Below, in pieces: positions 3,991 through 44,700 of a stretch of 64,000 nt of DNA. Source of the stretch: a virus. The stretch covers positions 1 through 64,000 of IMG/VR virus record IMGVR_UViG_3300032224_000809, one strand, 5' to 3'. The first letter of the stretch is position 1. Every line of letters starts with the position of its first letter. The translations under genes and the position numbers were made by a program. The notes beneath the pieces are model-generated. The model searched no databases and was not told the origin of the DNA. It saw nothing but the letters and a program-made list of their open reading frames with translations.

Positions 3991-4030
3991 GGTAGTGCAT
4001 CTATTATGGGCGCACTATCTTTTTTCTTTT
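3991..4030 (+). terminator. intrinsic terminator of the rightward early operon
   Basis: ggtagtgc/gcactatc stem followed by a long T run. Confidence 0.7.
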
Positions 4031-4094
4031 TATTTTTTAATTATACGTATCATACATCTGAACAAGATTTTCAGATTTGTGGTAAAATGGATCC

Positions 4095-4289
4095 ATGGGA
4101 ATTTTAGACAATCTAGAAAATGCCTGGGACTTCCCAGAACCAGAGAACCTGGCTGTAAAATTATTTTCAGAAACCTGCTGCTCAGGATGTACTTGTCAGC
4201 GGGAGTCAAAGGCTATTCCAGAAACAGACGCTATGGGCAGAGAAATCTTCTGGCTAGACATAGGTCGTAAATCCGAGGGGGATCAATAA
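4095..4289 (+). CDS. hypothetical protein (CCxxCxC), leaderless
   Basis: ORF track; TGGTAAAAT just upstream of the ATG. Confidence 0.6.
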   Translation: MGILDNLENAWDFPEPENLAVKLFSETCCSGCTCQRESKAIPETDAMGREIFWLDIGRKSEGDQ

Positions 4290-4465
4290 TGTCAGACAAT
4301 GAACTAACAACAGAACAACAAGCAATCATCATCGTAGAGAAACTATCTGCTGGTTTGAGAACACAGATTGCCAACGAAGTAGAGTTAGAGTTCCATGATA
4401 TCGATCATGATCTTGCTCATGCTATTGGTCAATTTATTCGTGAGGGTAAGCCTACCATCGCTTAG
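4289..4465 (+). CDS. hypothetical protein, 58 aa
   Basis: Manual translation MSDNELTTEQQAIIIVEKL...; TAATG coupling. Confidence 0.55.
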   Translation: MSDNELTTEQQAIIIVEKLSAGLRTQIANEVELEFHDIDHDLAHAIGQFIREGKPTIA

Positions 4466-4658
4466 GATGTTTATCGGTTTTATAAGACCTATATATCTGA
4501 AAATCGTTTAACGCTTGAATAATAATTTTTCGATCAACATTGCACATCTTGGCTAAGTCGTCAATAGATTTATTGTTGTCAACATATTGTTTTTCAAGCC
4601 AAGCCTTATCTTTATGGTTTGACATTACATGTTTTCGTGAGAAATACGATCTCTCCAA
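4452..4658 (-). CDS. small helix-turn-helix protein
   Basis: KAWLEKQYVDNNKSIDDLAKMCNVDRKIIIQAL pattern typical of small phage HTH proteins. Confidence 0.55.
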   Translation of the reverse strand: MERSYFSRKHVMSNHKDKAWLEKQYVDNNKSIDDLAKMCNVDRKIIIQALNDFQIYRSYKTDKHPKRW

Positions 4659-4770
4659 TATTTTTCAGAATTCTTACGTTCTTCTGCAAGTTTAATAATA
4701 TCTTCTTGTGTATCATCAGACCAAGCCTCAATATCGCAATTCATTAAATAAGGTCTAAAAGTTTCGGGGA

Positions 4771-4968
4771 TCAATTGATCACTCCATTTGCTTTGAGCGT
4801 ATCATACAACATACCATTAACAAAAACCATCTGCTCTCTGGCTGCAGCAATATACTGTTCTACTTGCTCAGAGTCGATTCCTTGCTGTTCTGCTTGGTAG
4901 CGATTAAATTCATCTACCGTACTTGTCATAAGTTCTACTGCTTCTGTTCTATCCATTTTGCTCTCCAA
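4771..4968 (-). CDS. hypothetical protein
   Basis: ORF track; part of a leftward chain. Confidence 0.6.
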   Translation of the reverse strand: MESKMDRTEAVELMTSTVDEFNRYQAEQQGIDSEQVEQYIAAAREQMVFVNGMLYDTLKANGVIN

Positions 4969-5203
4969 TTGGTTCGTAGTGTGTTGGTTCTAAATTTGTA
5001 AATGGCCATGGGTAATATGAAAAACCTAATTGCTCTGAAGCAATCTTATTTGCCATAAGTGTGATATCTGGATCAGCAGCAGCGATCATAGGTACAGTTG
5101 CTCCATTATTGGCCATATCTGCCTTCATACGGTTTGAAAGATCTTGAACTCTTTCAAAATATTGTATAACCTTAAGTCTGTGTTCTTCTGGAATACTTGC
5201 CAT
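4949..5203 (-). CDS. hypothetical protein
   Basis: ORF track. Confidence 0.6.
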   Translation of the reverse strand: MASIPEEHRLKVIQYFERVQDLSNRMKADMANNGATVPMIAAADPDITLMANKIASEQLGFSYYPWPFTNLEPTHYEPIGEQNG

Positions 5204-5204
5204 G

Positions 5205-5408
5205 CTACCACTTCCCCTTTGGACATTTTGCTTGTGCTAACTGGGTTTTCAATTTCATGAAACATCCGCATTGAACACATCTCTTTGTCATGGGTCTGAA
5301 AAACTCACAACCCTTACATATATTATACCTTATCGCTGCTTCTTCTTCAGATGCACGAGGAGATCCATTAATCATATCCCAAGGCTTTACATCTTCGCTC
5401 ATTACCAA
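5205..5408 (-). CDS. Cys-rich putative metal-binding protein (DUF6171-like)
   Basis: R..IC..C...C..CGCF...K......CP.GKW motif. Confidence 0.65.
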   Translation of the reverse strand: MVMSEDVKPWDMINGSPRASEEEAAIRYNICKGCEFFRPMTKRCVQCGCFMKLKTQLAQAKCPKGKW

Positions 5409-6169
5409 TCTACCTCCTGATCATACGTTATTGAATATTCCCCGCCAAAAATCTCAGCATATGAAATTATATCTTTATTATACCTTATTAACGTGTTTAT
5501 GCCAACTTTGTCACACATATATTTCTTGCCAGTTACAAGCGGTTCAAATGCTACCCCTTGCTCTTCAAATGCCGTATTTAGGGTTTGTATATATCGATCT
5601 TTGCCATATCGCTTAGATGTGAAGGATTGCTGAATATAGTCAAACCTTGCTTGCACATCATTCTCTCTTGCAATGTCCGAATTGTCTGTAATATACTTTA
5701 CTGCAGGATGTTCCATCCGTTTTGACCAATTAATCATGTTAGCGCTGTAAGACTCCATATTCTTAAGAGTTGAATCAGCGTATGCCATGCGGATAAGGTC
5801 AGAGTCGGAGGTTTGAACCTCTGTTGCAAACGAAATTAAAAATGCAGTTGCATATGGAAACTTGTCGCTATATGTCGAGACGCCGAAGTGAACATTCGGA
5901 TTAAAAGACTCAACCGACATACAATCATTTAACAGTCGCATATGATTTCCAAGTGACACATAATTTTGACGATTCATATCGCAATCAACAAACAAACATT
6001 CATATGGATTTACGCCATCTGCCAAACAAAGAATGTTCTTATCATACGTGCCAACTATTTTTGAACCGTTAAAACGATTTAATAACTGCGCCGACACCAA
6101 ACCATCCATATCTGGAGATATAATAATTTGTTTTGAAAACGACAGAGTGTCAAGTATGCTTTGTTTCAT
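5402..6169 (-). CDS. DHH-phosphoesterase-like protein (divergent)
   Basis: N-terminal SPDMDGLVSA (DxDG motif I), FVDCD, and GNH where DHH is expected. Confidence 0.45.
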   Translation of the reverse strand: MKQSILDTLSFSKQIIISPDMDGLVSAQLLNRFNGSKIVGTYDKNILCLADGVNPYECLFVDCDMNRQNYVSLGNHMRLLNDCMSVESFNPNVHFGVSTYSDKFPYATAFLISFATEVQTSDSDLIRMAYADSTLKNMESYSANMINWSKRMEHPAVKYITDNSDIARENDVQARFDYIQQSFTSKRYGKDRYIQTLNTAFEEQGVAFEPLVTGKKYMCDKVGINTLIRYNKDIISYAEIFGGEYSITYDQEVDW

Positions 6170-7252: not shown

Positions 7253-7948
7253 ATGGCGTTAAGCAGAAGCACAGATTTTCCAGGTAGCAGAAAAACAAAT
7301 TATGCTGATCAAGTTCAGCAATCACAAGAAATAGGTTCTATAGACAGCAGCCTTTATATACCAGTTCAAGGTCCACAGGGACCCGCAGGACCTAGGGGAT
7401 TAGACGGCCAGGTGGGCCCACAGGGACCCGCAGGAGTTCAAGGTGAACGTGGACCAGCAGGCAAGGATGGAAAGTCTTTATTTGCCGATGGGTGGGCCAA
7501 TTACGATAATAGAAACTCTATAAACTTTTCACTTGGAGCAACACGGGGAGACGATGGTTGGGTAGATGTTTATGTTGATGCTCTGGGTAAAGGAACAAAT
7601 GAAAAATATTTGCCTAAAGATAACATAAGTTTATACAATCCAGAAACTCGTAGAATTAACTTAAAACATTTAGACATTGGGTCACAACTTAGAATTACAT
7701 ATACTTTTGATTTATCGACATATGGAAATAATACTGAGGTTTGGGCAAGATCCTATTTCCCAGATACTGGAAAAGCCGTTACAAGTTTTGTTGCAAACCT
7801 TAAATACCAATATGACTATGAACTGTCAACAACCCACTTGCTATACTTAGATGATAGCGTAGACAAGTCAAGTGGTATAGTTCCACAACTAAGAGCAGAC
7901 CTAGACTCCATGGCAGTATTGAAATCAATCTATCTTTCAACGTTCTAG
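7253..7948 (+). CDS. collagen-like repeat structural protein
   Basis: 12 Gly-X-Y triplets (7370-7477). Confidence 0.8.
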   Translation: MALSRSTDFPGSRKTNYADQVQQSQEIGSIDSSLYIPVQGPQGPAGPRGLDGQVGPQGPAGVQGERGPAGKDGKSLFADGWANYDNRNSINFSLGATRGDDGWVDVYVDALGKGTNEKYLPKDNISLYNPETRRINLKHLDIGSQLRITYTFDLSTYGNNTEVWARSYFPDTGKAVTSFVANLKYQYDYELSTTHLLYLDDSVDKSSGIVPQLRADLDSMAVLKSIYLSTF

Positions 7949-8920: not shown

Positions 8921-9373
8921 ATGGCAAATAAAAATATAGATAATACAGATAATGGCACTGGAGTATTTAATACTAAGGTTCCTGGAATGGATGAGGCTGC
9001 AGATATTCAAGAAGCCCTTCGAATCTACCACTATGGATCAAAAACTCCTCCAGCATCAGAGGCAGACATTGTAAGGCCATCTCTTGTAGGTCATATTAAA
9101 GATATTAAAACAGATATTGCTACCATTAATGCAAAAGGTATTGGAAGCAAATACACAGCCAATGAACCATCATCTATTGTAGATGGAATGATCTGGGTAG
9201 ACTCTGATGTAACTGGTGGAAATGGAGTTCAGTTTGCAACCTCTCAATATCAAACAGCAACACCAACTACTGGTCTTGTTAATGGTTTAATCTGGATTAA
9301 AAAAGGAACTTCACCACTTGAGATGTGGGTTTATGATTCTTCTACTACTGCGTTTGTAAAGGTCGGTGCATAA
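8921..9373 (+). CDS. putative tail fibre connector protein
   Basis: Two P....G.IW motifs typical of phage fibres. Confidence 0.5.
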   Translation: MANKNIDNTDNGTGVFNTKVPGMDEAADIQEALRIYHYGSKTPPASEADIVRPSLVGHIKDIKTDIATINAKGIGSKYTANEPSSIVDGMIWVDSDVTGGNGVQFATSQYQTATPTTGLVNGLIWIKKGTSPLEMWVYDSSTTAFVKVGA

Positions 9374-10023
9374 TGCCAAAATCAATTGATTCAGAATCAA
9401 AAGTAGCATATATATATAGTTCAGAAACAGATAAGTGGCATCCAATTGCAGGAGCGGTTAATACTGGTGCAGCATATACCTGGTCAGCAGATCAGCGGTT
9501 TTCTACTTCTGTAACATTTGAATCTGTAGTTAAAGCAAAGGCTGGAGTAAATAATTTTTTAAACCCAGCAGCAAGAGATTTGGTTTTTACTGATATCTCA
9601 TCAGAAAATAAAAAAGGAATTGTCTGTTTTGTTAGAAATAATGCAGCAGGATTACCAATAAATCAAATTCAATATTTTGATGGAACTAATTGGAGATCAT
9701 ATTCTGATTCTACTTCACTGCTTTCAAAAACCAACACTGCAACATATACAATTGTTTTAGAAGATGCTGGTCGTACAATTATTGCAAACTCAGACACAGT
9801 AAATGAGATTGTTGTTCCAGCAAACAGCACTACTCCATTTGTTATTGGTCAAAGGCTTGACATTATTCGTTACGGCGTTGGAGTTACATCAATTTCTGGT
9901 GCAAACGGGGTAACTATTCAAAGCAAGAATTCTAATAAGAAGATTGCAGCAAGATACTCAGGAGCAACACTTATTAAATTAGAAGAGAACACCTGGATAC
10001 TTGTTGGCGATTTGATAGCGTAA
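9373..10023 (+). CDS. tail fibre/adaptor protein with C-terminal domain shared with 17489..18901
   Basis: C-terminal YT.VL.D.G...P.NS...F.IG..D....G.G....GVT...RYS.ATLIK...NTW...GDL.A. Confidence 0.7.
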   Translation: MPKSIDSESKVAYIYSSETDKWHPIAGAVNTGAAYTWSADQRFSTSVTFESVVKAKAGVNNFLNPAARDLVFTDISSENKKGIVCFVRNNAAGLPINQIQYFDGTNWRSYSDSTSLLSKTNTATYTIVLEDAGRTIIANSDTVNEIVVPANSTTPFVIGQRLDIIRYGVGVTSISGANGVTIQSKNSNKKIAARYSGATLIKLEENTWILVGDLIA

Positions 10024-10032
10024 GGTTTAAAA

Positions 10033-11412
10033 ATGCTGACCACACTAGGGCTATTTGGAAAAGGTATGGTATCAGTACCATCTTTAGTTGGTTTGTCAAA
10101 AACAGAAGCAGAGTTGACAATAACCGCAGCAGGATTGATTATTGGAAGTTCTGCATCAACAGATACAAATACACAGGCAGATAATTTAAAACTTTTTTCA
10201 CAAAATCCACCAAGTGGAACTGAGGTTGATTATGAAACCTCTGTTAGTTTTACTTATAAAACTTATGTTGCTCCAGTTATTAATACAATTAATACAATTA
10301 ATACAATTGATACTATTAACACAATAAATACTATCAACACTATTGCAACAATTAATACAATTAATACTATCGATACAATTAATACAGGACCACAGCCATG
10401 CTGCCAAGATGATGATGCTGGCTATTGTGTCAATGTGGGTTCAGATGGATATGGAACATGGATGCAATATCAATACGATCCATGTACTGCAAGTTCTTGT
10501 CCAGCAAGAAGCATGGGCAGAACATTCTGTGGAGTTCCTAACACAATTAACACAATTAACACAATTAACACAATTAACACAATTGATACAATTAACACAA
10601 TTAACACAATTAACACAATTAACACAATTAATGTGTGCTTGTCAGATGAAATTCCATCAGGAACTGCCTATCGTGCAGAGTGTTGTGGATATGCAGTTAG
10701 AGTTAAGGTTATAGGTTGCTCTGGAACACAAATTGGAACAGCATACTATTGCATTGATTCATGTGCAACTATCGATACTATCAACACTATTAACACTATT
10801 AACACAATTAACACAATCAATACAATCAACACTATTAACACTATCAACACTATTAACACTATCAACACTATTAACACTATCAACACTATTAACACTATTA
10901 ACACTATTAACACTATTGCTACTGGTGGATTCAGTGCTGGATGTTTGCTATACGAAACACCAATTTTGCTTGCCGACAGAACATATAAAAATATTGAAGA
11001 TTTAGAAGTTGGAGATGAACTACTTTCTTTAAATATTTTATCTATACCAGATGAAGAATATCCTACAATACTAGAGTCTTGGAGATCAGATAACATTGAT
11101 GATTCTGTTTTTACAACAACATTTGTAACAGATATAAAGAAAGCAACAAATCCAGGTTATTATTTATTAAATAATAAATTAAAGGTTACCTATGAGCATA
11201 CAATGTTAGTAAAAAGATCCGATGTTTGGATGTTTGTTTCTATGGAGCACGTTGTTGTTGGAGATTATATGGTTGATAGTGAAGGCGATACTATTCGTGT
11301 AGACTCTATTGATTATGATGACTCTGTTGTTAATGTTATTTCTATTGATACAGAAGTAAAAGATATGTATTTTGCAGCAGATATCTTAGTTCACAATATG
11401 TATGCAAAATAA
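10033..11412 (+). CDS. PASTA + (TIN)n arrays + Cys-rich minidomains + C-terminal Hint/BIL domain protein
   Basis: VPSLVG...SQNPPSGT PASTA pattern; G|CLLYETPILLAD...IEDLEVGD block A; TYEH block B; YFAADILVHN terminus. Confidence 0.85.
   Translation: MLTTLGLFGKGMVSVPSLVGLSKTEAELTITAAGLIIGSSASTDTNTQADNLKLFSQNPPSGTEVDYETSVSFTYKTYVAPVINTINTINTIDTINTINTINTIATINTINTIDTINTGPQPCCQDDDAGYCVNVGSDGYGTWMQYQYDPCTASSCPARSMGRTFCGVPNTINTINTINTINTIDTINTINTINTINTINVCLSDEIPSGTAYRAECCGYAVRVKVIGCSGTQIGTAYYCIDSCATIDTINTINTINTINTINTINTINTINTINTINTINTINTINTINTINTIATGGFSAGCLLYETPILLADRTYKNIEDLEVGDELLSLNILSIPDEEYPTILESWRSDNIDDSVFTTTFVTDIKKATNPGYYLLNNKLKVTYEHTMLVKRSDVWMFVSMEHVVVGDYMVDSEGDTIRVDSIDYDDSVVNVISIDTEVKDMYFAADILVHNMYAK
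10279..10923 (+). repeat. three in-frame 9-bp tandem arrays encoding TI(N/D/A): 11, 10 and 17 units
   Basis: 10285-10383, 10543-10632 (near-perfect acaattaac) and 10768-10920. Confidence 0.95.
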
Positions 11413-12001
11413 AATGATAAAGACAGAATACTTTCCTGGGGTAGTTGGATACTCTGGATTAATTCCAGAATCTATTGGTTATGTTGAAGATATTGTTGAT
11501 CTTGCAAATAAAGAACTTATATCTTGGCATAAAACAACAACTGGTCGTGGCAATGTAAATGCTGCAACAGTGATACCAGAATTGCGTCAAGGCTCAGTTA
11601 TTGGTCTTAATGGAATTAGTAAAGAAGAAAAAGTATTTTTGGCGGTATCTACTTTAAAAAATGCAGCAAATCTTGCAGTAAAAGAATGTCTTAATGACTA
11701 TCAAAATAGTTATGGATATTTTGATTTAGAAGGAGAAGGTTGGGCCCTATTAAAGTATGAAGTTGGAGATTTTTTTAAATTGCACACAGATGCCTCTAGG
11801 GCATATCCAAGACAAGTATCTACGGTATACTATATTAATGATGACTACCTTGGAGGAGAAATAAATTTTAAATATATAGACTTAGAATTAAAACCAAAAA
11901 AAGATGAGTTTTTAGTTTTTCCATCAACAAACCTATTTTCTCATTATGCAAAAGAAGTGATAGCGGGTACAAAATATTCAATGCCAAACTGGTTTAGATA
12001 A
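11402..12001 (+). CDS. 2OG-Fe(II) oxygenase (prolyl-4-hydroxylase-like)
   Basis: HTD...YYINDDYLGGE...FPS...H...KY. Confidence 0.88.
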   Translation: MQNKMIKTEYFPGVVGYSGLIPESIGYVEDIVDLANKELISWHKTTTGRGNVNAATVIPELRQGSVIGLNGISKEEKVFLAVSTLKNAANLAVKECLNDYQNSYGYFDLEGEGWALLKYEVGDFFKLHTDASRAYPRQVSTVYYINDDYLGGEINFKYIDLELKPKKDEFLVFPSTNLFSHYAKEVIAGTKYSMPNWFR

Positions 12002-17488: not shown

Positions 17489-18901
17489 ATGGCAACTAGA
17501 ATGCAACAGCGCAGAGGAACTGCAGCCCAATGGACGGCAGCAGATCCAATTTTAGCAGCAGGAGAAATTGGGTTTGAAACAGACACCAGCCAGTTCAAAA
17601 TGGGCGATGGCGTTAATGCATGGTCAACTCTCTCCTACTTTAAGAACTTAGAAGACTTGGGTGGTACTCTTGATGATTACATCCCACTAACCCAAAAGGG
17701 TGCAACCAATGGTGTAGTCCCTCTTGATGGCTCAGGTAAGATTCCAATTGGATACCTTACAAACCTTATTGCAAACGCACCAGAAGCACTTGATACACTT
17801 AAAGAACTTGCAGATGCAGTTACTTATGTTACAAATCAAGTTTCTGGACATAATGGAACAACAACAAATGTTCACGGTATCGCAAATACAGGAGCACTTG
17901 CTACAACTACAGCAGTTACTACAGCAATTGCGACACACGAAGCAGATACAACAAATGTTCACGGAATTGCAGATACATCAGTACTTGAAACAACATCTGG
18001 AGCACAAACTAAGGCCAATGCAGCAGCACTTGCTGAAGTAAATGCTCACAAGGTAATCACAACTTCAGTACACGGAATTGCTGATACAGCACTTCTTGCT
18101 ACAAAGGTATATGCCGATGCAGTAGGAACAACAGAGGCTTCAAGCCGTGCAACAGCAATCTCAACACATAATTCAGCAACAGCAAACGTACACGGAATTT
18201 CTGATACATCTGCTCTTGCTACAAAGACATATGCTGATGGTAATGTTACAACACACAACTCAGCAACAACAAGCGTACACGGAATTGCAGATACTTCACT
18301 TCTTGCAACTAAGTCATACGTAGATACAGCAGATGCTCTTAAGGCAGCGCTTGCATCACCAGCATTCACTGGCACACCAACTGCTCCAACAGCAACAGCA
18401 GGAACAAATACTACACAGGTAGCAACAACAGCGTTCGTAGGAACAGCAGTTTCAGCACTCGTAGCATCTGCTCCAGCAGCACTTGACACACTTAATGAGT
18501 TGGCAGCAGCGCTTGGTAGCGATGCAAACTTCTCAACAACAATGACAAATGCTCTTGCTCTAAAGGCAAGCAAGGCTGAACTTTCAGCAGCAACTGTCGC
18601 ATCATTTAATAACAAGACAACTTCTTACACACCAGTACTTTCAGATGAAGGAAATGTAATTGAAATGGATTCTGCTTCAGCAAATTCTGTTACAATTCCA
18701 CCAAACTCATCAGTAGCATTTACAATTGGTTCATCAATCGATGTATTCCAAAAGGGTACAGGCCAGACAACAATCGTTGCAGGTGCAGGAGTTACAGTTC
18801 TTAATACACCAGGACTCAAGTTCCGTGATCGTTACTCAATGGCAACATTGATCAAGCGTGATACAAATACTTGGATCGTTTCTGGCGACTTGACAGCGTA
18901 A
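17489..18901 (+). CDS. tail fibre with Mtd_N/hyaluronidase-N-like start, HGIADT repeats and shared C-terminal domain
   Basis: QRRGTAAQW...GEIGFETDT..FK.GDG; five H-x7-HGI repeats; ends ATLIKRDTNTWIVSGDLTA. Confidence 0.8.
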   Translation: MATRMQQRRGTAAQWTAADPILAAGEIGFETDTSQFKMGDGVNAWSTLSYFKNLEDLGGTLDDYIPLTQKGATNGVVPLDGSGKIPIGYLTNLIANAPEALDTLKELADAVTYVTNQVSGHNGTTTNVHGIANTGALATTTAVTTAIATHEADTTNVHGIADTSVLETTSGAQTKANAAALAEVNAHKVITTSVHGIADTALLATKVYADAVGTTEASSRATAISTHNSATANVHGISDTSALATKTYADGNVTTHNSATTSVHGIADTSLLATKSYVDTADALKAALASPAFTGTPTAPTATAGTNTTQVATTAFVGTAVSALVASAPAALDTLNELAAALGSDANFSTTMTNALALKASKAELSAATVASFNNKTTSYTPVLSDEGNVIEMDSASANSVTIPPNSSVAFTIGSSIDVFQKGTGQTTIVAGAGVTVLNTPGLKFRDRYSMATLIKRDTNTWIVSGDLTA

Positions 18902-18932
18902 TACAAATTTAATAAGAAAAAAGGAGATATAA

Positions 18933-20288
18933 ATGGCAACTATTCGTAGAGGTGGTAAAGCAGGTAAATCTGCTAAGGCTGCAGTAAGTTTTTGGGGAGT
19001 AGCCCCAGGGCAACCTTACATCGTAAGCGTAGTCCCAGGTTTTGGTGGAGCATATTTCTCATCAACAGCCGTGATTACATTCAATAAGAATGCTATGGGT
19101 GCCACTCCTTCTTCTTATACAATTTTCGCTAACTCAGTATATGGAACTACTACATTCACAGCAACGTCTTCACCATTTACAGTTACAGGTTTAAGAGCAG
19201 GTACAGCATACGCATTCACAATTCTTGCAAATGCTCCAGTTGGTCAGGCAGCAACAGCAACAACATCTGTAGCGTCTTCACAGAGTAACGCAGATATAAA
19301 GTCTGTTCCTGATGCTCCAACAGGAGTTACAGCATCATCACCATCAGGTGCAACATATGACACAGTGTCATGGTCAGCACCAGCAGATAACGGTGGAGAA
19401 GCAATTACTAACTATCAGATTGAATCTTCTGACGGAAAGTCTGCTACAGTAAATGCTCTTACAACAAATATTGCACAAGAAGCAGGAACAGCACAGACAT
19501 ACCGTGTTAGAGCCTACAATGCTCAGGGTTGGTCAGAATGGTCTGCATGGTCAGCATCTGTTACAACATTCTCATTTGTGCCGTTCTCAGTATTCGGATT
19601 CTCCCCATTCGGAGTATTTGGATTCTCACCATTCGGCGTGTTCGGATTCTCTCCATTCGGATTCTCTCCGTTCGGTGTATTCGGATTCTCTCCGTTCGGT
19701 GTATTTGGGTTCTCACCATTTGGTTTCTCACCATTCGGAGTATTTGGATTCTCACCATTCGGTGTATTCGGATTCTCTCCAGGAGGAGGATGTATTGCTC
19801 CTGATACACTAGTATCAGTTGTTGGTCCAGAAGACACATACATTCAGATTCCTGCAAAGGATGTTGTTACTGGACAAGAAGTATGGGCACACTCATTTGA
19901 TGAAATGATAGATGAAACTGTTGCTGATCCAATGACACTTGCTTTTGATAAATTGACAAACCAAGCAATTGTTAAGACAAACGTTGCATCTGTTGTTGAA
20001 AAAGAAATGCCAGCAACATTGACAATTAACGGGGACTCAACAAAGAAGTATTCAACTGTACAGGGAATTCTATATAAGCGTAATGGAATCTATGGATACA
20101 TTAGTACAGGACTTCTAGAAGTTGGAGACTATGTAATGGAATATGATTACAATTTTCATGCTTTCAATGAGATTCTAGTAACATCAATTGAAATTGATGA
20201 AACTCCATCAACAGTTTATAAGTTTGACATGGAACCAGCAGATACATTTATTGCTGGAAACATGGTAGTACACAATCGTAAGTCATGA
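18933..20288 (+). CDS. FN3 domains + FSPFGVFG array + C-terminal Hint/BIL domain protein
   Basis: PDAPTGV...WSAPADNGG.AITNY...YRVRAYN FN3; GGG|CIAPDTLV; TFIAGNMVVHN terminus. Confidence 0.85.
   Translation: MATIRRGGKAGKSAKAAVSFWGVAPGQPYIVSVVPGFGGAYFSSTAVITFNKNAMGATPSSYTIFANSVYGTTTFTATSSPFTVTGLRAGTAYAFTILANAPVGQAATATTSVASSQSNADIKSVPDAPTGVTASSPSGATYDTVSWSAPADNGGEAITNYQIESSDGKSATVNALTTNIAQEAGTAQTYRVRAYNAQGWSEWSAWSASVTTFSFVPFSVFGFSPFGVFGFSPFGVFGFSPFGFSPFGVFGFSPFGVFGFSPFGFSPFGVFGFSPFGVFGFSPGGGCIAPDTLVSVVGPEDTYIQIPAKDVVTGQEVWAHSFDEMIDETVADPMTLAFDKLTNQAIVKTNVASVVEKEMPATLTINGDSTKKYSTVQGILYKRNGIYGYISTGLLEVGDYVMEYDYNFHAFNEILVTSIEIDETPSTVYKFDMEPADTFIAGNMVVHNRKS
19569..19790 (+). repeat. FSPFG(VFG) peptide array with 8-8-5 higher-order period
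   Basis: Nine FSP units; synonymous codons differ between units. Confidence 0.95.
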
Positions 20289-20293
20289 TGTAA

Positions 20294-21010
20294 TTGCTTT
20301 ACCATCATCATGCGCCAAGGACTTCAGGCCTATTCATTAGATCTGCGGTCCATTTGGCTTTTCAGACCAATAAACTAAAATCAGCAATTGTTTATCATGA
20401 TAGGGCCATTAGTCCAGACATGTTTAAAGATGTTGAGTTTATTTCTGGACACTTAGGGAACTATCCTAATCTATTTATTAAAGATTTAAAATCTTTTACA
20501 ATATTAAGAGATCCAGTTGAGAGGTTTATTAGTTGGTTCTTTTTCATGTATGAAAACTCCAGAAGTTTTGAGGAACTTGAAAAAATATTTGACCAGTGGC
20601 TATATAACCCAGAGATATATCCATACCTTTCAGACATGCAAACAAAATTTTTGACGGGAACTGTAGATGAAGCAGGATTTAACAGCACTAAAAGCATAAT
20701 GGATAAAACCATGAATGAGTGGTTTCTTAAAGATTATTCGTTTGATGAGTCAGTAATGCAGGACAAAGTTGACTCTATTGGTTGTTATACAGTGGAGACC
20801 AGAGATATACTATTAGATGACATAATTAGGTATATGGGTAAAACATATGGCTTTGTCCCAAACTTTCAGCACAGACATATGATGTTTAACTCAAGCACAT
20901 CTAAAAGGTTTGACATAACTGATAAAATGATTAACAGGATTAAAGAACTAAACCAGCATGATATAATTTTATATGAGATGGCAAAAAAGTCTAATCCAAA
21001 GCCACTTTAA
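20294..21010 (+). CDS. sulfotransferase-family protein
   Basis: HAPRTSG (HIPKTAG-like 5'-PSB loop), SGH, LRDPVERFISWF (3'-PB), ELNQHDIILY. Confidence 0.75.
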   Translation: MLYHHHAPRTSGLFIRSAVHLAFQTNKLKSAIVYHDRAISPDMFKDVEFISGHLGNYPNLFIKDLKSFTILRDPVERFISWFFFMYENSRSFEELEKIFDQWLYNPEIYPYLSDMQTKFLTGTVDEAGFNSTKSIMDKTMNEWFLKDYSFDESVMQDKVDSIGCYTVETRDILLDDIIRYMGKTYGFVPNFQHRHMMFNSSTSKRFDITDKMINRIKELNQHDIILYEMAKKSNPKPL

Positions 21011-21050: not shown

Positions 21051-21716
21051 ATGAACATGAATCAATATCCAACCGATATTCAGAGTGTGAGCAAGTCCAC
21101 TCAGCCACATAAGTTTTTTGAAAGATATCTTAACAATAACCTATCGGTCCTAGCATCAGAACTACAGGATAGATATGAAAAGATTGAAAAAGCAAAAGTT
21201 GTAGGCGTAACTCCAGTAGGTGCTAACGAAGCCTGGAAGCAGTCAAATAGTGTATCAACAATGAAGTGGAGACAGTATAATGTTTTCCAATTCCACTCAA
21301 CTGGTATTTATAATTTGTACAAATCGGTAAAAGATATGACAATTGAAGCATGCGACTACTACGGTATTGATTTTGAAAAAGAAAAGTTTATGCTTCAGGG
21401 ATGGTTTAATATTACTCATGCTGGTAAGGGTAAACTTGATTGGCATGATCATGGTCCAACTGGTGCTCCAAACTTTCATGGGTACTACTCTGTAAGTGCA
21501 GAGCCTTCAATTACCTACTACAAGGTTTTTGATAAGGAGATTGAGAATCATAACAAGAATGATCGTGCAATCCTTTCTGAAATGGGGCATCCACACTCTA
21601 TGGCCGATTGGGACTGGGAAGGTCCAAGAATTACAGTTGCCTATGACGTTATTCCATTAAGAGATATTCAAAAGTTTGGAATGGATCAAGAGCAACATTG
21701 GATTCCACTAGCATGA
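21051..21716 (+). CDS. putative 2OG-Fe(II) oxygenase (TIGR02466-like cupin)
   Basis: WFN...HDH...GYY...H...RITVAYD. Confidence 0.7.
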   Translation: MNMNQYPTDIQSVSKSTQPHKFFERYLNNNLSVLASELQDRYEKIEKAKVVGVTPVGANEAWKQSNSVSTMKWRQYNVFQFHSTGIYNLYKSVKDMTIEACDYYGIDFEKEKFMLQGWFNITHAGKGKLDWHDHGPTGAPNFHGYYSVSAEPSITYYKVFDKEIENHNKNDRAILSEMGHPHSMADWDWEGPRITVAYDVIPLRDIQKFGMDQEQHWIPLA

Positions 21717-22348
21717 TAGCAATGGCAAAACCAAGTCACAAGTTTTTTGAAAGACATTTAAGTCTAGATCTTCCAAAACTCGAAACATCTCTTTTGAGTC
21801 TTAAAGAAAGACTTTCTTCTGAAAATGTTCCAGGGGTAAAAAATAAAGACTATGAGTCAGTAGATAAAGCATCATTTACTACTCAACTAGGAGAGAAGTA
21901 TAATATCTTTCAGTTTCATGATGAGAATATTAGAGCACTTTATTCTTCAATTAGAGACATGGTTTTAGAAGCCTGTGACTACTATGGTATTAATGCTAAA
22001 GATCAAAACTATATGATTCAGGGATGGTTTAATGCTGATAAAAATAGCAAGCCAGAGCCACTACCAAATACATATCTTCATGACCATTTAAACGGTCAAG
22101 GAGCACCAGATTTTCATGGATACTACTGCGTTAATGCAGAGCCTTCATATACAAAGTATATGATTTCAGGAGAGACAGAGTTTTTGAATGTTAATGTTAA
22201 TAACCGTGCAATCCTTTCTGAAACTGGACATGCTCATGGTATTAGCAACTGGCCTTTTGAAAAAGACAGAATCACAATTGCTTATGATGTGTCTCCATTG
22301 CAAAATATGAAAGGCTCACCAGAACAGCATTGGGTTCCAATCCTATGA
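21713..22348 (+). CDS. putative 2OG-Fe(II) oxygenase, paralog of 21051
   Basis: Same HKFFER, YN.FQFH, HDH, RAILSE, RITIAYD and EQHW blocks; ATGA overlap. Confidence 0.7.
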   Translation: MIAMAKPSHKFFERHLSLDLPKLETSLLSLKERLSSENVPGVKNKDYESVDKASFTTQLGEKYNIFQFHDENIRALYSSIRDMVLEACDYYGINAKDQNYMIQGWFNADKNSKPEPLPNTYLHDHLNGQGAPDFHGYYCVNAEPSYTKYMISGETEFLNVNVNNRAILSETGHAHGISNWPFEKDRITIAYDVSPLQNMKGSPEQHWVPIL

Positions 22349-38715: not shown

Positions 38716-41700
38716 GTGTCTGATGTAAATGCTAATATAGGCATACATTTTGATACGGCCACGGCTCTTTCAGAATTAAGAAGGCTTCAGGCTGGTCTAA
38801 GCAAGTTTAACCAATCCTTAACACAAGGAAACATTGCTGCTGAAAATGCACAAAAGGGTTTAAACAGTCAACTCATTCAGTCGATTAATCAAACTGGAAA
38901 GTTTATTGCTAGCCAAAAGGATGTCCATACATCTACTGCAGCCTTCACCTCTGCGCTGGAAAAGAACCAGTTAAGCCTTAAACAATACTTTAGATATACC
39001 GCTGCAGCCACCTCATTAAACAGTAATGTCTTAAAAAACTTTTTTGCTCAAGAAAAAGAAATTCTTCAACGTGCAAGTAAAGATAGAGTAAAGACTCTTC
39101 AAAGCCAGTATATCCAGTTAACAAATGCTAATGGTCAATTAGTAAAAACTCTTCAGGTAATGCCAAAGCATCTACAGATGACTGGTGGAGCATACACAGA
39201 TTATGCAACACGAATACAAATGGCTGCACAAAGACAACAGTTCTTGAATCAACTATTAAAGCAGGGTTCAACACAACTACTAAACTTTGGTAAAAATACT
39301 CAATGGGCAGGCCGTCAGTTGATGGTTGGTTTAACAATTCCTTTGACAATGCTTGGATCATTTGCTGCTAAAACATTTAAAGAGATGGAAGAGGCAACTG
39401 TAAAGTTCCAGCGTGTATATGGAGATATGGCAACAAGCGTTGCAGAAACAGACAAGGCTGTTGCTGGAATTAAAAGACTTGCTAGCGAGTTCACAAAGTA
39501 TGGTGTTGCAGTAAAAGATACAATGAACATGGCTGCAGATGCAGCAGCAGCAGGTTATTCTGGCGCAGCCCTTACCGCTCAAGTAACGCAGGCAACTAGA
39601 CTTGCAGTTCTTGGTCAAGTGGATCAACAGCAAGCATTAGAAACAACTATTTCTTTACAGAATGCCTTTGGAATATCTTCTGAACAATTAGCAACCAAGA
39701 TTAACTTCCTCAACGCTGTAGAAAACCAAACAGTTTTGTCTATTGAAGATTTAACTATTGCAATTCCAAAAGCAGCCCCTGTTGTAAAACAACTTGGAGG
39801 ATCTGTTGAAGACCTAGCCTTCTTCCTTACAGCAATGAAGGAAGGTGGAATCAACGCATCAGAAGGTGCCAACGCACTTAAGTCTGGCCTTGCAGCAATG
39901 ATCAATCCTTCTAAGAAAGCATCAGATATGCTTGCTGGTCTTGGAATTAATATTAAGGGAATTGTTAATAATAATGCGGGGGATTTAAAAGGCACCGTAG
40001 TAGGATTTGCAAGAGCACTAGATACACTAGATCCTCTTAACCGTGCTAAAGCAATTGAGCAGATGTTTGGCAAGTTCCAGTTTGCCCGTCTATCAACATT
40101 ATTCCAGAACATAACAAAAGATGGCAGTCAGGCTTCTAGAGCACTAGGTTTGGCAGGTGCTTCTATGGAAGAGTTAGCAATCTTGGCAGAGCGAGAAACA
40201 GCAAAGATTGAAAATGCAACTGGTAAGAAATTCCAAAAAGCAATTGAAGATATGAAGGTTCAGTTGATGCCTTTGGGTAAGGCATTCCTTGAGGCTGCAA
40301 CTCCTATTGTAAAATTTGTTGGAAATATATTAGAAAAATTTAATAACCTAAGCGATGGAACAAAAAAGATCATAACAACTATCGTTGGAGTGGTTGGAGG
40401 TTTGGCCCCAGTAGCACTTATGGCATTTGGTTTACTTGCTAACGGAACTGCAAACGTAATCAAGTTCTTTGCAATGCTTCGTGGAGGAATGGCAAAACTT
40501 AATGGACAAAGCAACGTCCTTGGTGCAGGCTTTGACTATATGACTCAGCAACAGATCGAAAGTCTTGCTCAGTCTAATGCCCTTCATACATCACATCAAA
40601 AATTAATTGAAACATTTAATGTTGAAGCAGGAGCAGCAAATGCACTAGCAGCAGCATATGGAAATGCAGCATCACAAGCAAGAGCACTCTCAATGTCCTC
40701 TCCAGGATTGTTTAATGCAGCACCAGGAGCAGCAGGGGCAACATCAGGTCTTTCTCCAAGAAAGAAATATGCAGAAGGTGTATTTAGTGTTCCAGGATCA
40801 GGAACTGGAGATACTGTTCCAGCAATGCTGACTCCAGGAGAAACAGTTGTATCAAAAAAGAATACAGATAAATATGGACCACTTCTTAAAGCAATTGGAA
40901 ATGATTCTGTTCCAGGATATGCAAATGCAGGAATGGTTGGTGCAGATGGACAAAGAATTTCATTTAATGGTCAGAGTTATGAAATACCAAATAGATCAAC
41001 ACCACAAAGCGCTAACCTTGCATTAATTTCAGAACTATCTAAGTTTAGCAAGGATGTAGAGGGTGTCTCTCGTGTATTAAAAATGCTTGAAGCCCAAGCC
41101 AAAATAGCAGGGGATGGATTTAAAAAATTATCTGGGGAAACAATAAAGACTATTCTCGAACAAGAAGGTGTATTAAGAAATAGACCAAAGGGAACTTCTG
41201 CAACAACGTACAATGGAGAAAATTATGTGTTTGCACATGGACAGTCTCCTGGCGCCCCAATAAGAGATCCACAAGAATTGCAAAGACTTGCAGATATGGC
41301 AACATCAAAAACATCTGGAGTTGGAAAACACCTACAGTCTTCGGCAGATGCTGCTAAGGCAGGAGATCCAAACGGATATGCTAGACAGTTTAGCAACTTT
41401 GGATTTATGCTACCAGAAAAAGCAAACAAGGGACAAATGTCCCCTACAGATCTTGCATCTAAATTTGGTGGAAAAGATATGGCAGTCACCATGGCCCCAA
41501 TGTATGATCAGTATGCAAGGTCAATGGGTATGTCACTTGAAGAAGCACTTAATAATCCTGCTGTCGCTGCACAAATGCATACAGACATGCAAACATTTGC
41601 AAGTAGAATTTCAAGCGAAGTTTCAAAAATTCCAACAGAGTTTGTTAATGATCCAGAATTTTACGCAGCAGTAAAGCAAGCACAATCCCAACTTGGAGAT

Positions 41701-44700
41701 TCTGTTAGTGGAATGATGAAACAGGCAATTGCTGATGCTAAAGCAACTTCTGTTGTTGGAACATTTGGTGGAGAAGCAAACCGTGGATCAGAAGGACAAA
41801 GAATATCTTTGGCAGGAAAAGAAACAGCATTAAGAACAGAGTTAGGGGCTTCATCAAACGCAAAGCCATACAGAAAGAGAAACCCAGAATTTGTAAAAGC
41901 ATCAACAGAGATTAGTGATGCACTCGATAAAGACTTAACAAGAGCAGAAAAGCAAATTGCTCAAACAGCATCTCCATCAAAGAGAACTAAGAAACTAGGG
42001 CAAGATATTGGAGATGGTTTATCTCAAGGTCTTGCCTCAAAGGCTAGTGCTGTATCAGCACAGTCAGATAAATTAAAGAAGGCTGCAAAAGTTGATACAG
42101 GTAATAAACAGTTCTATGATGATATTAATACTCCAGATATGAGAGACCAAAGACAGGTCCTTAAATCTCTTGATAGAAGAAGAAGAGATGGCAAGGGGTC
42201 ACTATCTTCTGGCGCAGGCTCAGGCGGAATTGATAAAACATCTGCAACATTAACATTACAGATGGGCAAACTTTCTAAAGCAACTGGGGATTCACTAGAG
42301 GCACAGAGAAGACATCAAGATAACATAGTAACAGCGTCAGATCTTGCTAAAGCAACAGCAAACAGTTCACAACAAATTGCTAATGCAGCAGATCAAACAG
42401 CAAATGCACAACAAAACTCATCAATGCTTGCAGATCAAATTTCAAAGAAAGATCGTGAAATTCTTGCAGAGAAAGAAAAAGAACTTGCTGCACTTCGTGC
42501 AAAAATTAACTCATCAGCATCACAATCTCAAAACCTTGATACCAGAATGACAAAAGAACAAGCGCTCAAAGAAGCCTCTGGATATGCTCGTGAAGATGGC
42601 AAAGTATTTATTGATCCAGGTACAGGCGACCCAATGGACAAGAAAACATACAACAAGATGAAGCGTGGTATGCGTAGAGAAAAGGTTGGAAAGTTCTCTG
42701 GTAAGGCTGCAGGAGGCCTAGGAATTGCCACTATGGTTGCAGGCGCAGTGGGGGCACCACCAGCAGTAACAGGAGCACTTGGAGCAGCATCCACAGTTGC
42801 ATCTATTGCCCCAGCCCTAGCAGGTATGGGACCAGTTGGTTGGACTGTTGCAGGAATAGCAGCACTTGGTGCTGGAGCATATATGCTAAATAAACATTTT
42901 GAAAATGCAGCAAAAGAAACTGCAAAATTTGTAACTGCAACATCTGCTACATCTGATTTAATGAAAAAGATTGGTCAAGAAACTGGTCTTGTTGGTGCAT
43001 CTGAAATTATGAATAAGAGAAGAGGAAATGGACTCCTCTCTGGATATAATGAAGCAGCACGTAAAGGAACCATGGAGGGCGAGAAGTTTATGGGGTCTGC
43101 AACTGGTAAAGAGTTGACAGCCACATATACAAAGAACGCAAATCAAAATGGTTCAGAAGTAGCAGCACAACAGTTTGCAATGCAGTTGGCAGCAGCCGTT
43201 TCTGATGGAACAATGAGTGCAGATCTTGCAAGTCAGGTTGCATATCAACTAGGAGTTAACCTAAAAGACTCTAGTATTTCTATGAAAGTTGATGGACAAT
43301 TAAGAAATCTCATTGGACCAAATGGAGAAGATTTAACAAGAGATCCATTAACAGTTAGAACACGTCTTGCAGTTATTGCAGGAGCAAGATCTGGTCAAAT
43401 AGTTAATGGTCTAGATGAGGCTTTAGCAAAGGGCAATAGTGGAAGAACTGAAGCAGCAGCCCTTGCAGCAGCAGGAACAAACGCAGTTGAGATGGCCCAG
43501 ATGCAAGCCGATGGAATGGCAAGATATTATGAAGATCAATTAAAATCTTTGACAGCACAACGTGCAGCAACTACCGATAAAGCAAAACAGTTAGAACTTG
43601 ATACCCAAATTAAAGCAATGCAGGATAAACAAATAGCGGGTATGGAAACAATGAATAGGCTTGTTTCTGCTCAGATTGCAAAGCAAGAAGCATTTGTAGC
43701 AGATAAGGTAATTGGAGCATACACTGGAACAGCAAAAGAAGATGCATATTTTGATGCAAATAAGGCTGATGTAAAAGCAAAGTATAAAGGTACAGCATAT
43801 GAGGCATCGGCACAAAGAGTGCTTAATGTTGGTGCACGTGCCGATGAAGATAAATCTTTTGGCAGCGTAAAGGCTGGTAGAGTATTTGAAGCAAAAATTC
43901 AAATGCTTATGGCTTCTGGTCAGTTGAATCCTAATCAAATGGAAACAATGCTAAAAATATTTGATGGCAATCTTGCAAGCATGGATGTTGCTTTAAATGT
44001 TGGAATTAGAAAACAGGGCGCTACAAAGGTAGCAGAACTTACATCTCTCCTCTCTGGAATGAAAAATAAAACAACAGCGCAAAGTATTGTTTTAAATATG
44101 GTTAGAAAGAGTCCAGCAGAGTTTGATAGAGTTGGCAAGGCTCTAGCATTACTTCAAGCCTCTGATGGCCTAGAGGTAGATATGAGCGCTTACATAGATA
44201 CAGTTGGTTTACCAGGTCTTGAAAAACTTGCAAAAAATCTTGATCTAATTGAAGCAATGAAAACCCCTATTACAAAAGAAGCAGTTATTCAATTTGGAAA
44301 AGATACATTAACTAATATGCAGGGGGTTATTGACAATTGGGACTATTTTAGTAAATTAAAAGACCCAGTACAAAAAGAAGCCATTCAAACATACACAACA
44401 CTTTATGATACTTTAATACATTTTGAAAATGAAGATGCACGTCGTGCTTGGGCAGATAAAATGGCAAAAGACGAAGCAGGCCTGTATGGTAAACCAGGTT
44501 CAACTGAATATACAACTGTCTATAATACTAAGTTTAATGCGTTAACTTCTGGAACACTTAATGATCCAGCAGCAGCAGCAAAACTTGCTTTTGATATGGA
44601 TCAGGCAAAATACGGAAAAGATCCTGTAATTGCTTCAAAGCCTGCAGGTCCAGCAACCGACACTGGCTCAGGTAATAAACCAGCAGACCCATATGCAGAT

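Follow-up and report, generated by a model that had tools for sequence, protein, structure and literature searches.

A phage fibre-region protein with Thr-Ile-Asn repeats and a predicted Hint cap is encoded beside an oxygenase clade that travels with this repeat type

An uncultured phage encodes, beside its tail-fibre genes, a cell-wall-binding-type protein whose long Thr-Ile-Asn (TIN) spacers end in an intein-like (Hint) cap that is inferred to be self-processing, and a 2OG-Fe(II) oxygenase of one clade accompanies this proline-free repeat type in many phages. The association points to an undescribed protein modification of phage fibres, although the chemistry itself is inferred from sequence, a predicted fold and gene association. 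The gene lies in the window analyzed here, a 64,000-nucleotide stretch of virus record IMGVR_UViG_3300032224_000809 (positions 1 to 64,000). The features considered below are as follows.

9373..10023 (+), upstream fibre-region gene (216 aa), whose residues 122-216 (nt 9736-10020) form a conserved tip domain with an invariant Lys (Lys202)
10033..11412 (+), precursor open reading frame (459 aa)
10069..10254 (+), PASTA domain (residues 13-74)
10285..10383 (+), TI(N/D/A) array 1, 11 units (residues 85-117)
10399..10530 (+), six-Cys module 1 (residues 123-166; begins CCQDDDAGYC)
10543..10632 (+), TI(N/D) array 2, 10 units (residues 171-200)
10636..10764 (+), six-Cys module 2 (residues 202-244)
10768..10920 (+), TI(N/D/A) array 3, 17 units (residues 246-296), abutting the Hint junction
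10921..10941 (+), Gly-rich junction TGGFSAG, with Gly303 as the -1 residue
10942..11397 (+), predicted BIL-type Hint domain, Cys304 to Asn455
11398..11409 (+), four-residue tail MYAK, ending in Lys459
11402..12001 (+), 2OG-Fe(II) oxygenase a, overlapping the precursor's stop codon
12011..12604 (+), 2OG-Fe(II) oxygenase b

We first examined whether the architecture described in the initial annotation, namely a PASTA-like N terminus, TI(N/D/A) arrays of 11, 10 and 17 units, two six-Cys spacers and a Hint domain with Cys304, TYEH, a terminal His-Asn and the tail MYAK, was present in the sequence, and every detail of this observation was confirmed. The open reading frame is the longest at this position. 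The three arrays comprise 38 units in all and contain no Pro. Cys residues were placed at 123, 124, 132, 151, 156 and 166 in the first spacer, at 202, 217, 218, 229, 240 and 244 in the second spacer, and at 304, while TYEH is at 386-389 and His454-Asn455 precede the tail. Tandem Repeats Finder identified 9-nt periods at 10279-10386, 10539-10631 and 10777-10917, with scores of 118-212. Codons within the arrays vary at synonymous sites (ACA/ACT, ATT/ATC/ATA and AAT/AAC), as expected for selection on the peptide. The unit numbers are those of the assembled sequence, but each array is only 93-153 nt long, and the same architecture was assembled independently in a related locus, L004, and in three metagenomes with identical proteins (loci L008, L009 and L010). 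In-frame TIN-type arrays of 5-31 units also occur in more than 15 further viral contigs. A megablast search of 15 kb of the window against cultured phages returned no match.

To assign the individual domains, we combined Pfam searches with structure prediction by AF2. The N terminus matched PASTA (PF03793, residues 13-74) with an E value of 9e-7 and 29.2 bits, above the 23.2-bit cut-off, and with 32 bits when only the N-terminal 120 aa were searched. AF2 predicted this region with a pLDDT of about 80, with one helix and several strands. Six-Cys module 1 was predicted as three strands with a pLDDT of 59-70 and recurs, once to several times, in other family members and in P0008, a protein that lacks a Hint domain. 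Module 2 was predicted with low confidence, but all six of its Cys residues are at least 90% conserved in an alignment of close relatives. Searches of Pfam and the ESM Atlas gave no family for the six-Cys module.

Pfam searches with the query alone missed the Hint domain at an E value of ≤0.1, and against the curated models Hint_2, PT-HINT and Intein_splicing the query itself scored only below threshold (E values of 0.02-0.05). Of 42 relatives, 27 matched Intein_splicing, 21 matched PT-HINT and 15 matched Hint_2 at an E value of ≤1. We therefore turned to a family profile and to fold comparison. The C-terminal 152 aa were predicted as a Hint fold (the horseshoe, all-beta fold) with a pLDDT of 91.4 and a pTM of 0.86, and Foldseek returned 65 PDB matches with E values of ≤1e-3, those listed being BIL domains, inteins and Hedgehog Hint. 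The closest solved structures were BIL domains, namely, Tetrahymena BIL2 (6y75; E = 2.5e-11) and Clostridium thermocellum BIL (2lwy; E = 4.9e-9), followed by Hedgehog (1at0; E = 1.5e-6), and a search of the family profile against PDB sequences likewise matched 2lwy best (E = 8e-13). Absence of a Hint fold, which had been named beforehand as a finding that would refute the annotation, was thus not observed. The domain is a mini domain without a homing endonuclease, and its conserved C-terminal His-Asn is followed by a non-nucleophilic Met, as in A-type BIL domains. The features of a canonical intein were not found, because the C-extein is only four residues long, the +1 residue is Met and the domain is terminal. 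Likewise, there is no sterol-recognition region of the Hedgehog/Hog type, since the protein ends four residues after Asn455.

Next, we asked how widely this arrangement is distributed. The protein belongs to a very large, almost purely viral family of 1433 clusters, with variable N-terminal binding domains, a hypervariable short-peptide repeat, a Gly-rich junction before Cys1, a C-terminal Hint domain and a tail of 1-15 aa. TIN arrays are one recurrent type of this repeat. Only 3 pattern-confirmed loci were found in 185,579 species genomes. Among 46 family members, 31 start with PASTA and 7 carry FN3. Protein lengths in the family range from 150 to 3400 aa. The catalytic positions are kept across deep divergence in two co-varying classes, one with Gly before Cys1, TxxH and HN (23 relatives) and one with Lys before Ser1, SxxH and HD-Ser (about 25 relatives). 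The Hint domain lies within 15 aa of the C terminus in 131 of 149 diverse representatives, and Gly is the -1 residue in 75 of 141 junctions. A Lys is present in 142 of 148 tails, against 28.5 expected, whereas a Cys, Ser or Thr at +1 is present in only 10 of 148. Lys459 is invariant in the alignment of close relatives. A relative from a cultured phage, AD1_108 of Dickeya phage AD1, has the same Gly/Ser|Cys junction, THEH, His-Asn and a Lys-bearing tail.

The genomic context is consistent with a virion component, although this location is inferred from neighbours and annotations only. The window contains tail-fibre-like genes and genes for a portal, a protease and a capsid protein, and relatives in cultured jumbo phages are annotated as tail or virion proteins. 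The gene directly upstream, 9373-10023, has PHROG tail or virion hits, and its tip domain is 43% identical to the C terminus of gene 17489-18901 (E = 8e-20), so that the domain occurs twice in this window. In 35 of 47 loci, the tip domain lies in the gene 0-25 nt upstream of the Hint gene. This arrangement raises the possibility that a thioester made by the Hint domain is resolved in trans, with the C-terminal Gly303 of the stalk being ligated by an isopeptide bond to a lysine of another virion protein, most simply the invariant Lys of the tip domain, so that the adhesin would be welded covalently to the fibre tip in the manner of Hedgehog or BIL2. In line with this idea, the N-terminal domains vary while the Hint end is constant, and BIL2 conjugates its N-extein to lysines of other proteins (PMC8616854). 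However, there is no evidence of contact between the two proteins (a predicted complex of the tip and Hint domains gave an ipSAE of 0.00 in two runs without controls, which says nothing either way), an invariant Lys can be purely structural, and the near-universal tail Lys suggests a built-in, cis acceptor instead. We therefore consider trans ligation unlikely, though possible.

We then examined the two oxygenase genes downstream. Both products matched PF13640, a prolyl-hydroxylase-like family, with 50.5 bits (E = 4e-13) for oxygenase a and 54.6 bits (E = 2e-14) for oxygenase b, against a cut-off of 27, and the HxD...H iron triad and the basic G-x-K/R motif for 2OG binding are kept in all 20 aligned oxygenases. 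Oxygenase a is an extra paralogue found only in the query, L004 and L008 lineage. A 2OG oxygenase was present in 14 of 14 TIN-type loci, compared with 17 of 21 Pro-rich, 3 of 11 Phe-rich and 8 of 15 other loci. One specific clade, which includes oxygenase b, occurs in every TIN-type locus and is exclusive to such loci (a clade of 13, all from TIN loci; support 100/99). A blind DNA-pattern scan recovered 15 extra TIN proteins, all of which have the same order of array, Gly run and Cys1, and the oxygenase is directly downstream in each case. The oxygenase clade follows the repeat type and not the Hint lineage, as the TIN Hint domains are not one clade (AU p 0.004) and are interleaved with alleles that lack or replace that oxygenase. 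Within the query's own phage lineage, TIN alleles carry two oxygenases, whereas alleles with FSVFAFTP or Pro-Thr repeats carry none or, in locus L006, a Gnt1-family GlcNAc-transferase (PF11397; E = 8e-19). The co-variation nevertheless rests on few independent events, about four TIN lineages against three non-TIN lineages inside one Hint clade, and could therefore reflect cassette co-inheritance.

Because the oxygenases are of a prolyl-hydroxylase-like family but none of the TIN-type arrays of 14 proteins contains Pro, proline cannot be the hydroxylated residue in the paired repeat, and the true target could lie elsewhere. In such a scenario, the enzymes would act on host metabolism, nucleic acid or another virion protein, such as the collagen-like protein 7253-7948 encoded 2 kb upstream, and their adjacency would be cassette hitch-hiking. 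Yet the collagen-like gene is also present, 94-99% identical, in loci L005-L007, which lack the oxygenases, the oxygenase clade sorts perfectly with repeat type, and the oxygenase start overlaps or abuts the precursor's stop codon in most loci. This alternative thus appears unlikely. We regard as very unlikely a RiPP-like reading, in which the repeats are a polyprecursor cut into small modified peptides after Hint processing. Tailoring enzymes do sit directly beside a repetitive peptide-coding gene, twice in the window, but no protease, cyclase or exporter lies in the cassette, folded binding domains are interspersed with the repeats, and the gene sits inside the tail-fibre block, after a fibre gene.

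The interpretation offered in the initial annotation was only partly supported. The PASTA N terminus and an intact Hint domain of BIL type rather than a canonical intein were borne out, and the proposal that the arrays are an oxygenase substrate gained real comparative support, at the level of gene association only. In contrast, the suggestion that the arrays form a beta-solenoid, amyloid-like or ice- or mineral-binding stalk was not supported. AF2 gave all three arrays a pLDDT of 26-33 and no secondary structure, close homologues with 90-99% identical flanking genes hold unrelated repeats (FSVFAFTP and Pro-Thr) at the same positions, unit number drifts among close relatives (38, 27 and 35 units), and nothing links the phage to ice. 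In favour of this idea, in which the oxygenases would be unrelated to the stalk, the arrays have perfect three-residue periodicity with a hydrophobic residue at every third position, and some family members, for example AD1_108 of Dickeya phage AD1 and P0076, have true collagen-type repeats before the Hint domain, so trimeric period-3 stalks exist in the family. A trimeric fibrous form is therefore not excluded, but we consider a functional TIN structure of this kind doubtful. A search for WhiB as an actinophage marker gave 17.2 bits, below the 23.6-bit cut-off, and thus did not identify a host.

Taken together, we favour, with moderate confidence, a model in which the gene encodes the precursor of a tail-fibre-associated appendage or adhesin of a tailed phage, with a PASTA domain and two small, putatively disulfide-bonded modules as its working end, spaced by three low-complexity stalks and capped by a BIL-type Hint autoprocessing domain. 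The sequence analyses establish the architecture, the Hint fold (as predicted), the intact catalytic positions, the membership of a huge viral family with this layout and the conserved gene order of fibre with tip domain, repeat-Hint protein and oxygenase, whereas cleavage, ligation, hydroxylation and ligand binding by the PASTA domain are inferred. In this view, Cys304 would attack the Gly303 carbonyl in an N-S acyl shift to make a thioester, which would be resolved either by water or, as in Tetrahymena BIL2, by a lysine epsilon-amine, for which the tail Lys459 is the obvious candidate, and cyclization of Asn455 would then free the Hint domain. Before or after this, oxygenase b, and perhaps oxygenase a, would hydroxylate the arrays on a residue other than proline. 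Asn/Asp at the third position is the most economical guess, because N and D interchange there while Thr is fixed. The stalk would then display the PASTA domain at a distance from the fibre.

A more far-reaching possibility, which we consider tentative, is that phages use a BIL-type Hint cap as a one-shot, ATP-free protein ligase that forms an isopeptide bond to its own tail lysine or to the invariant lysine of the tip domain, thereby attaching a stalk that a dedicated 2OG oxygenase clade has hydroxylated on non-proline residues (Asn/Asp, Thr or Ile). That would be a virion-building chemistry and a protein modification not described for any virus. Literature searches for a C-terminal Hint domain on phage structural proteins and for phage P4H acting on virion proteins found only ordinary inteins in terminase or RNR genes and general reviews, and we found no paper describing this system. 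2OG-Fe(II) oxygenases are widely annotated in aquatic phages, but we found no paper assigning them a protein substrate. This locus offers a concrete, testable candidate, a tripeptide polymer that cannot be a prolyl-hydroxylase target, so that new chemistry is implied. If the tail lysine acts as proposed, the Hint cap would extend the unusual lysine-directed BIL2 mechanism from one ciliate locus to more than a thousand viral protein clusters, and it may explain how hypervariable adhesin stalks are matured or welded onto fibres. The natural alleles within one phage lineage provide ready-made controls, and compact C-terminal BIL domains with a built-in lysine acceptor could also be useful protein-ligation tools.

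Among known systems, the best structural match is the BIL2 domain of the Tetrahymena thermophila BUBL1 locus (PDB 6Y75 and 6TMM; TM 0.74-0.80; profile E = 1e-10), which also has Cys1, a block-B His and a terminal Asn, lacks a canonical +1 nucleophile route and resolves its thioester into an isopeptide through a lysine (PMC8616854). BIL2, however, sits between two ubiquitin-like domains in a eukaryote and dispenses ubiquitin-like proteins, whereas here the domain is the last domain of a phage fibre-region protein, preceded by a peptide-repeat stalk and followed by only 1-15 residues. A-type bacterial BIL domains, such as that of C. thermocellum (PDB 2LWY), are the best sequence-profile match and share the mini Hint without endonuclease, Cys1, TxxH, a conserved C-terminal His-Asn, the lack of a +1 nucleophile and the location in hypervariable, non-conserved proteins (PMC7765530), but differ from the family described here in its strictly C-terminal position, Lys-bearing mini-tail, poly-Gly -1 region and viral distribution. 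The Hedgehog/Hog autoprocessing domain (PDB 1AT0) follows the same logic of a C-terminal Hint that cleaves between Gly and Cys and leaves an activated N-terminal product, yet here no sterol-recognition region follows, the terminal His-Asn that Hog domains lack is kept, and the sequence is much closer to BILs. The chlorovirus PBCV-1 prolyl 4-hydroxylase, with that virus's Pro-rich repeat proteins, likewise pairs a virus-encoded P4H-family 2OG oxygenase with a repetitive protein substrate, and the Gnt1-family enzyme of L006 recalls the Skp1 PhyA/Gnt1 pathway, but with no proline in the arrays the chemistry here cannot be prolyl hydroxylation of the array. Finally, the C-terminal intramolecular chaperone domains of phage tailspikes and fibres (Peptidase S74 type) are a functional analogy, being self-removing C-terminal domains on phage fibre proteins, but their fold and chemistry are unrelated, a Ser-Lys dyad protease as opposed to a Hint thioester, and no S74 match was seen in the Pfam search.

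We first confirmed that the open reading frame (ORF) at 10033-11412 on the plus strand encodes a protein of 459 aa and that it contains every element listed in the initial annotation. A script-based count of residues placed these elements as follows.

Residues 85-117, TI(N/D/A) array of 11 units
Residues 171-200, TI(N/D/A) array of 10 units
Residues 246-296, TI(N/D/A) array of 17 units
The two spacers between the arrays, exactly six Cys each
Residue 304, the next Cys (Cys304)
Residues 386-389, TYEH
Residues 454-455, His454-Asn455, followed by the tail MYAK

The arrays contain no Pro. Tandem Repeats Finder identified three 9-nt arrays, and synonymous codons vary inside them, so that the peptide rather than the DNA repeat is what is kept. 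Pfam placed a PASTA domain at residues 13-74, above its gathering score. The observation made in the initial annotation therefore held in full.

The window is the first 64 kb of a 74.6-kb IMG/VR viral contig that was estimated to be 69% complete. Around the gene lie tail-fibre-like genes, a collagen-like gene and an SLT-type lysozyme, and further on RNR, portal, protease and capsid genes. Two giant ORFs of 2862 aa and 1417 aa lie downstream of the head genes, at 38716-52144. No cultured phage matched at the DNA level in a megablast search with 15 kb of the window. Outside the window (G000:C1:67400-67465), a weak WhiB-like match inside a 278-aa frame scored 17.2 bits, below the 23.6-bit cut-off, which is not enough to call an actinobacterial host.

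To determine whether the C-terminal region is a Hint domain, we combined profile searches with structure prediction, because Pfam alone missed the domain and the query matched the solved BIL domain 2LWY only weakly (E 0.059). An alignment of the C-terminal domain from 42 relatives matched 2LWY at E 8e-13, Tetrahymena BIL2 at 1e-10 and mini-inteins at 1e-8. In addition, many individual relatives hit Pfam Intein_splicing, PT-HINT, Hint_2 or Hint. AlphaFold2 on the same alignment gave a model with a pLDDT of 91.4, for which Foldseek returned BIL2 (E 2.5e-11, TM 0.74-0.80), the C. thermocellum BIL, mini-inteins and Hedgehog Hint. The absence of a Hint fold, which had been named beforehand as grounds for rejecting the annotation, was therefore not what we found, and the BIL-type reading is the best fit.

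Next, we examined how widely this architecture is distributed. An exhaustive phmmer search with the last 163 aa found 1433 clusters at E <= 1e-3, and the projected domain end lies within 15 aa of the C-terminus in 131 of 149 listed representatives, in proteins of 150-3400 aa. A scan of viral contigs gave 83 loci, whereas a scan of 185,579 species genomes gave three, one in a Saccharibacteria MAG and two in Streptomyces. The full ORFs share one layout, in which variable N-terminal binding-type domains (PASTA in 31 and FN3 in 7 of 46), sometimes with copies of the six-Cys module, are followed by a hypervariable short-peptide repeat (TIN, FSVFAFTP, Pro-Thr, NPGF, NPPVYS, PFF, FGFTP, VSPVG, YYAP or true collagen triplets) and by a junction directly onto the Hint domain. 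The six-Cys module that lies at 10399-10530 in the window and starts with CCQDDDAG(Y/F)C is a mobile unit that recurs in other family members (loci L022, L023 and L025-L032 of the viral-contig scan). A 728-aa protein without a Hint domain (P0008) carries related Cys-rich modules several times, and no Pfam or Atlas family matched the module. A cultured jumbo phage, Dickeya phage vB_DsoM_AD1, has a family member (AD1_108, at 4026-5465 of locus L084) with collagen-type triplets, then Ser-Gly before Cys, THEH, His-Asn and a Lys-rich tail, followed by two annotated tail-fibre genes, and offers an experimental handle.

Two co-varying catalytic classes exist within the family. Class 1, which includes the query, has a Gly-rich stretch before Cys1, TxxH, His-Asn and a short tail. 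Class 2 (loci L014, L022 and L037-L077) has Lys before Ser1, SxxH and His-Asp followed by an invariant Ser (tails SSAI, SFSI and SVAI), which is a canonical-looking splice junction with a C-extein of only 4-6 residues. Three or four small ORFs separate class 2 genes from a PF13640 oxygenase. In class 1, 142 of 148 tails of 1-15 aa hold a Lys, against 28.5 expected from composition, and only 10 have Cys, Ser or Thr at +1. Gly is the -1 residue in 75 of 141 junctions, and Lys459 of the query is invariant among its close relatives. The structure providers of BIL2, the closest fold, report that it splices through a lysine epsilon-amine to give an isopeptide (PMC8616854, section 2.4), and A-type BILs are described as cleaving without a +1 nucleophile (PMC7765530). 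The kept catalytic residues and the kept tail lysine argue for an active cap that would remove itself, with hydrolysis or lysine aminolysis as the inferred resolving step, although no chemistry has been shown.

We then asked what the TIN arrays are. In homologous proteins P0001-P0006 and loci L005-L007 the flanking genes are 90-99% identical to those of the window, yet the positions of the arrays hold FSVFAFTP and Pro-Thr repeats instead. Unit numbers also differ among the TIN-type relatives (38, 27 and 35). Full-length AlphaFold2 prediction from a 12-sequence alignment folded the PASTA domain (pLDDT about 80), the first Cys module (pLDDT 59-70, three strands) and the Hint domain (pLDDT about 85), while all three arrays stayed at pLDDT 26-33 without secondary structure. 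There is thus no support for a monomeric solenoid or an ice-binding face, although a trimeric form is not excluded. Proteins P0011-P0014, which are unrelated, are 350-460 aa long and have long tracts in which every third residue is Ile, Leu or Val (such as DTINTVGTIQKINPQ), matched the query only through the repeats and may represent another period-3 stalk.

The arrays are nevertheless not a one-off. A blind scan of viral contigs for five back-translated TIN units gave 68 stretches, and of the 21 ORFs over 300 aa that read the array in frame, 19 end in this Hint domain. In 15 further unique proteins (371-1533 aa), a (Thr-Ile/Val-Asn/Asp)n array abuts GGGG followed by Cys1. The DNA pattern also occurs in AT-rich giant-virus MAGs (among contigs L086-L153), but there it lies in short ORFs or other frames and is probably plain low-complexity DNA.

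To test the proposal that the arrays are an oxygenase substrate, we compared the genes next to the repeat-Hint gene across loci. In the window, these are two PF13640 2OG-Fe(II) oxygenases with intact HxD...H triads.

11402-12001, oxygenase gene overlapping the precursor's stop codon
12011-12604, second oxygenase gene

An oxygenase homologue lies directly downstream of the repeat-Hint gene in about 22 unique loci and within 2.7 kb in about 14 more, and its presence differs by repeat type.

Loci with an oxygenase, by repeat type
TIN, 14/14
Pro-rich, 17/21
Phe-rich, 3/11
Other, 8/15

All 15 extra TIN proteins have an oxygenase immediately downstream on the same strand, 48-58% identical to gene 12011. 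In a maximum-likelihood tree, 13 oxygenases form one clade with 100/99 support; all 13 come from TIN-type loci, and gene 12011 is among them, while gene 11402 is a lineage-specific extra paralogue. As a control, we built a tree of the Hint domains, in which TIN-type proteins fall in at least three groups. These are interleaved with Pro-rich alleles (L015-L021), whose oxygenases belong to another deep clade, with Phe-rich alleles (L005-L007), which have no oxygenase, and with other alleles (L024, L041 and L079), which have none. An AU test rejected TIN monophyly (p 0.004). Thus, wherever the array type changed, the oxygenase changed or vanished with it.

Within the query's own phage lineage, three states sit between the same flanking genes: TIN with two oxygenases, FSVFAFTP/Pro-Thr with nothing (L005 and L007), and FSVFAFTP/Pro-Thr with a Gnt1/Skp1-type GlcNAc-transferase in place of the two oxygenases (L006:5915-6871, PF11397, E 8e-19). 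The upstream collagen-like (Gly-X-Y) gene at 7253-7948, which lies in the same structural block, is present and 94-99% identical in relatives with and without the oxygenases, so it is not what the oxygenases follow. Together, these results give real, though correlative, support to the idea that the arrays are an oxygenase substrate, with the reservation that the independent events are few. Because the arrays lack Pro, the modified residue must be another one. Asn/Asp is the economical guess, since N and D interchange at position 3, but this is inference.

We also identified a candidate upstream partner. Two genes of the window share a C-terminal domain of about 95 aa (43% identity, E 8e-20), and the second of them opens another cassette with the same logic, at 17489-21010.

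9373-10023, gene upstream of the repeat-Hint gene, with the shared domain
17489-18901, fibre gene with the same tip domain
18933-20288, second repeat-Hint gene, with FN3, FSPFGVFG repeats and GGG before the Cys of a Hint domain that ends HN-RKS and has the block-B His replaced by Gln
20294-21010, Sulfotransfer_2-like gene (E 1.8e-5, above cut-off)
21051-21716 and 21698-22348, ORFs with no Pfam hit at E <= 0.01

A profile of the shared domain found it in the gene ending 0-25 nt upstream of the repeat-Hint gene in 35 of 47 loci with enough sequence. The domain has an invariant Lys and a W...GDL end, and PHROG matches call it a tail or virion protein end. This fits a fibre whose tip would receive the repeat-Hint protein, by docking or by covalent ligation, but binding stays a hypothesis, on which a single complex prediction gave no verdict.

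The interpretation offered in the initial annotation is therefore supported in part: BIL-type processing and an oxygenase substrate gain support, whereas a solenoid or ice-binding stalk does not. The architecture, the gene associations and the match of the predicted fold to BIL domains come from the analysis itself, while self-removal of the cap, modification of the arrays and attachment to the fibre tip are inferred from them. In the literature that we could search, we found no description of a strictly C-terminal BIL cap with a Lys mini-tail on phage fibre-region proteins, of the hypervariable peptide-repeat stalk in front of it, of a dedicated oxygenase clade paired with a proline-free polymer, or of the conserved fibre-tip gene in front. 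The protein chemistry that these features suggest is testable and potentially new. The cap is a member of the Hint superfamily that, by inference, would work most like A-type BIL and BIL2 domains. It does not qualify as a canonical intein, given its four-residue C-extein and the Met at +1, or as a Hog domain, since it has no sterol-recognition region.
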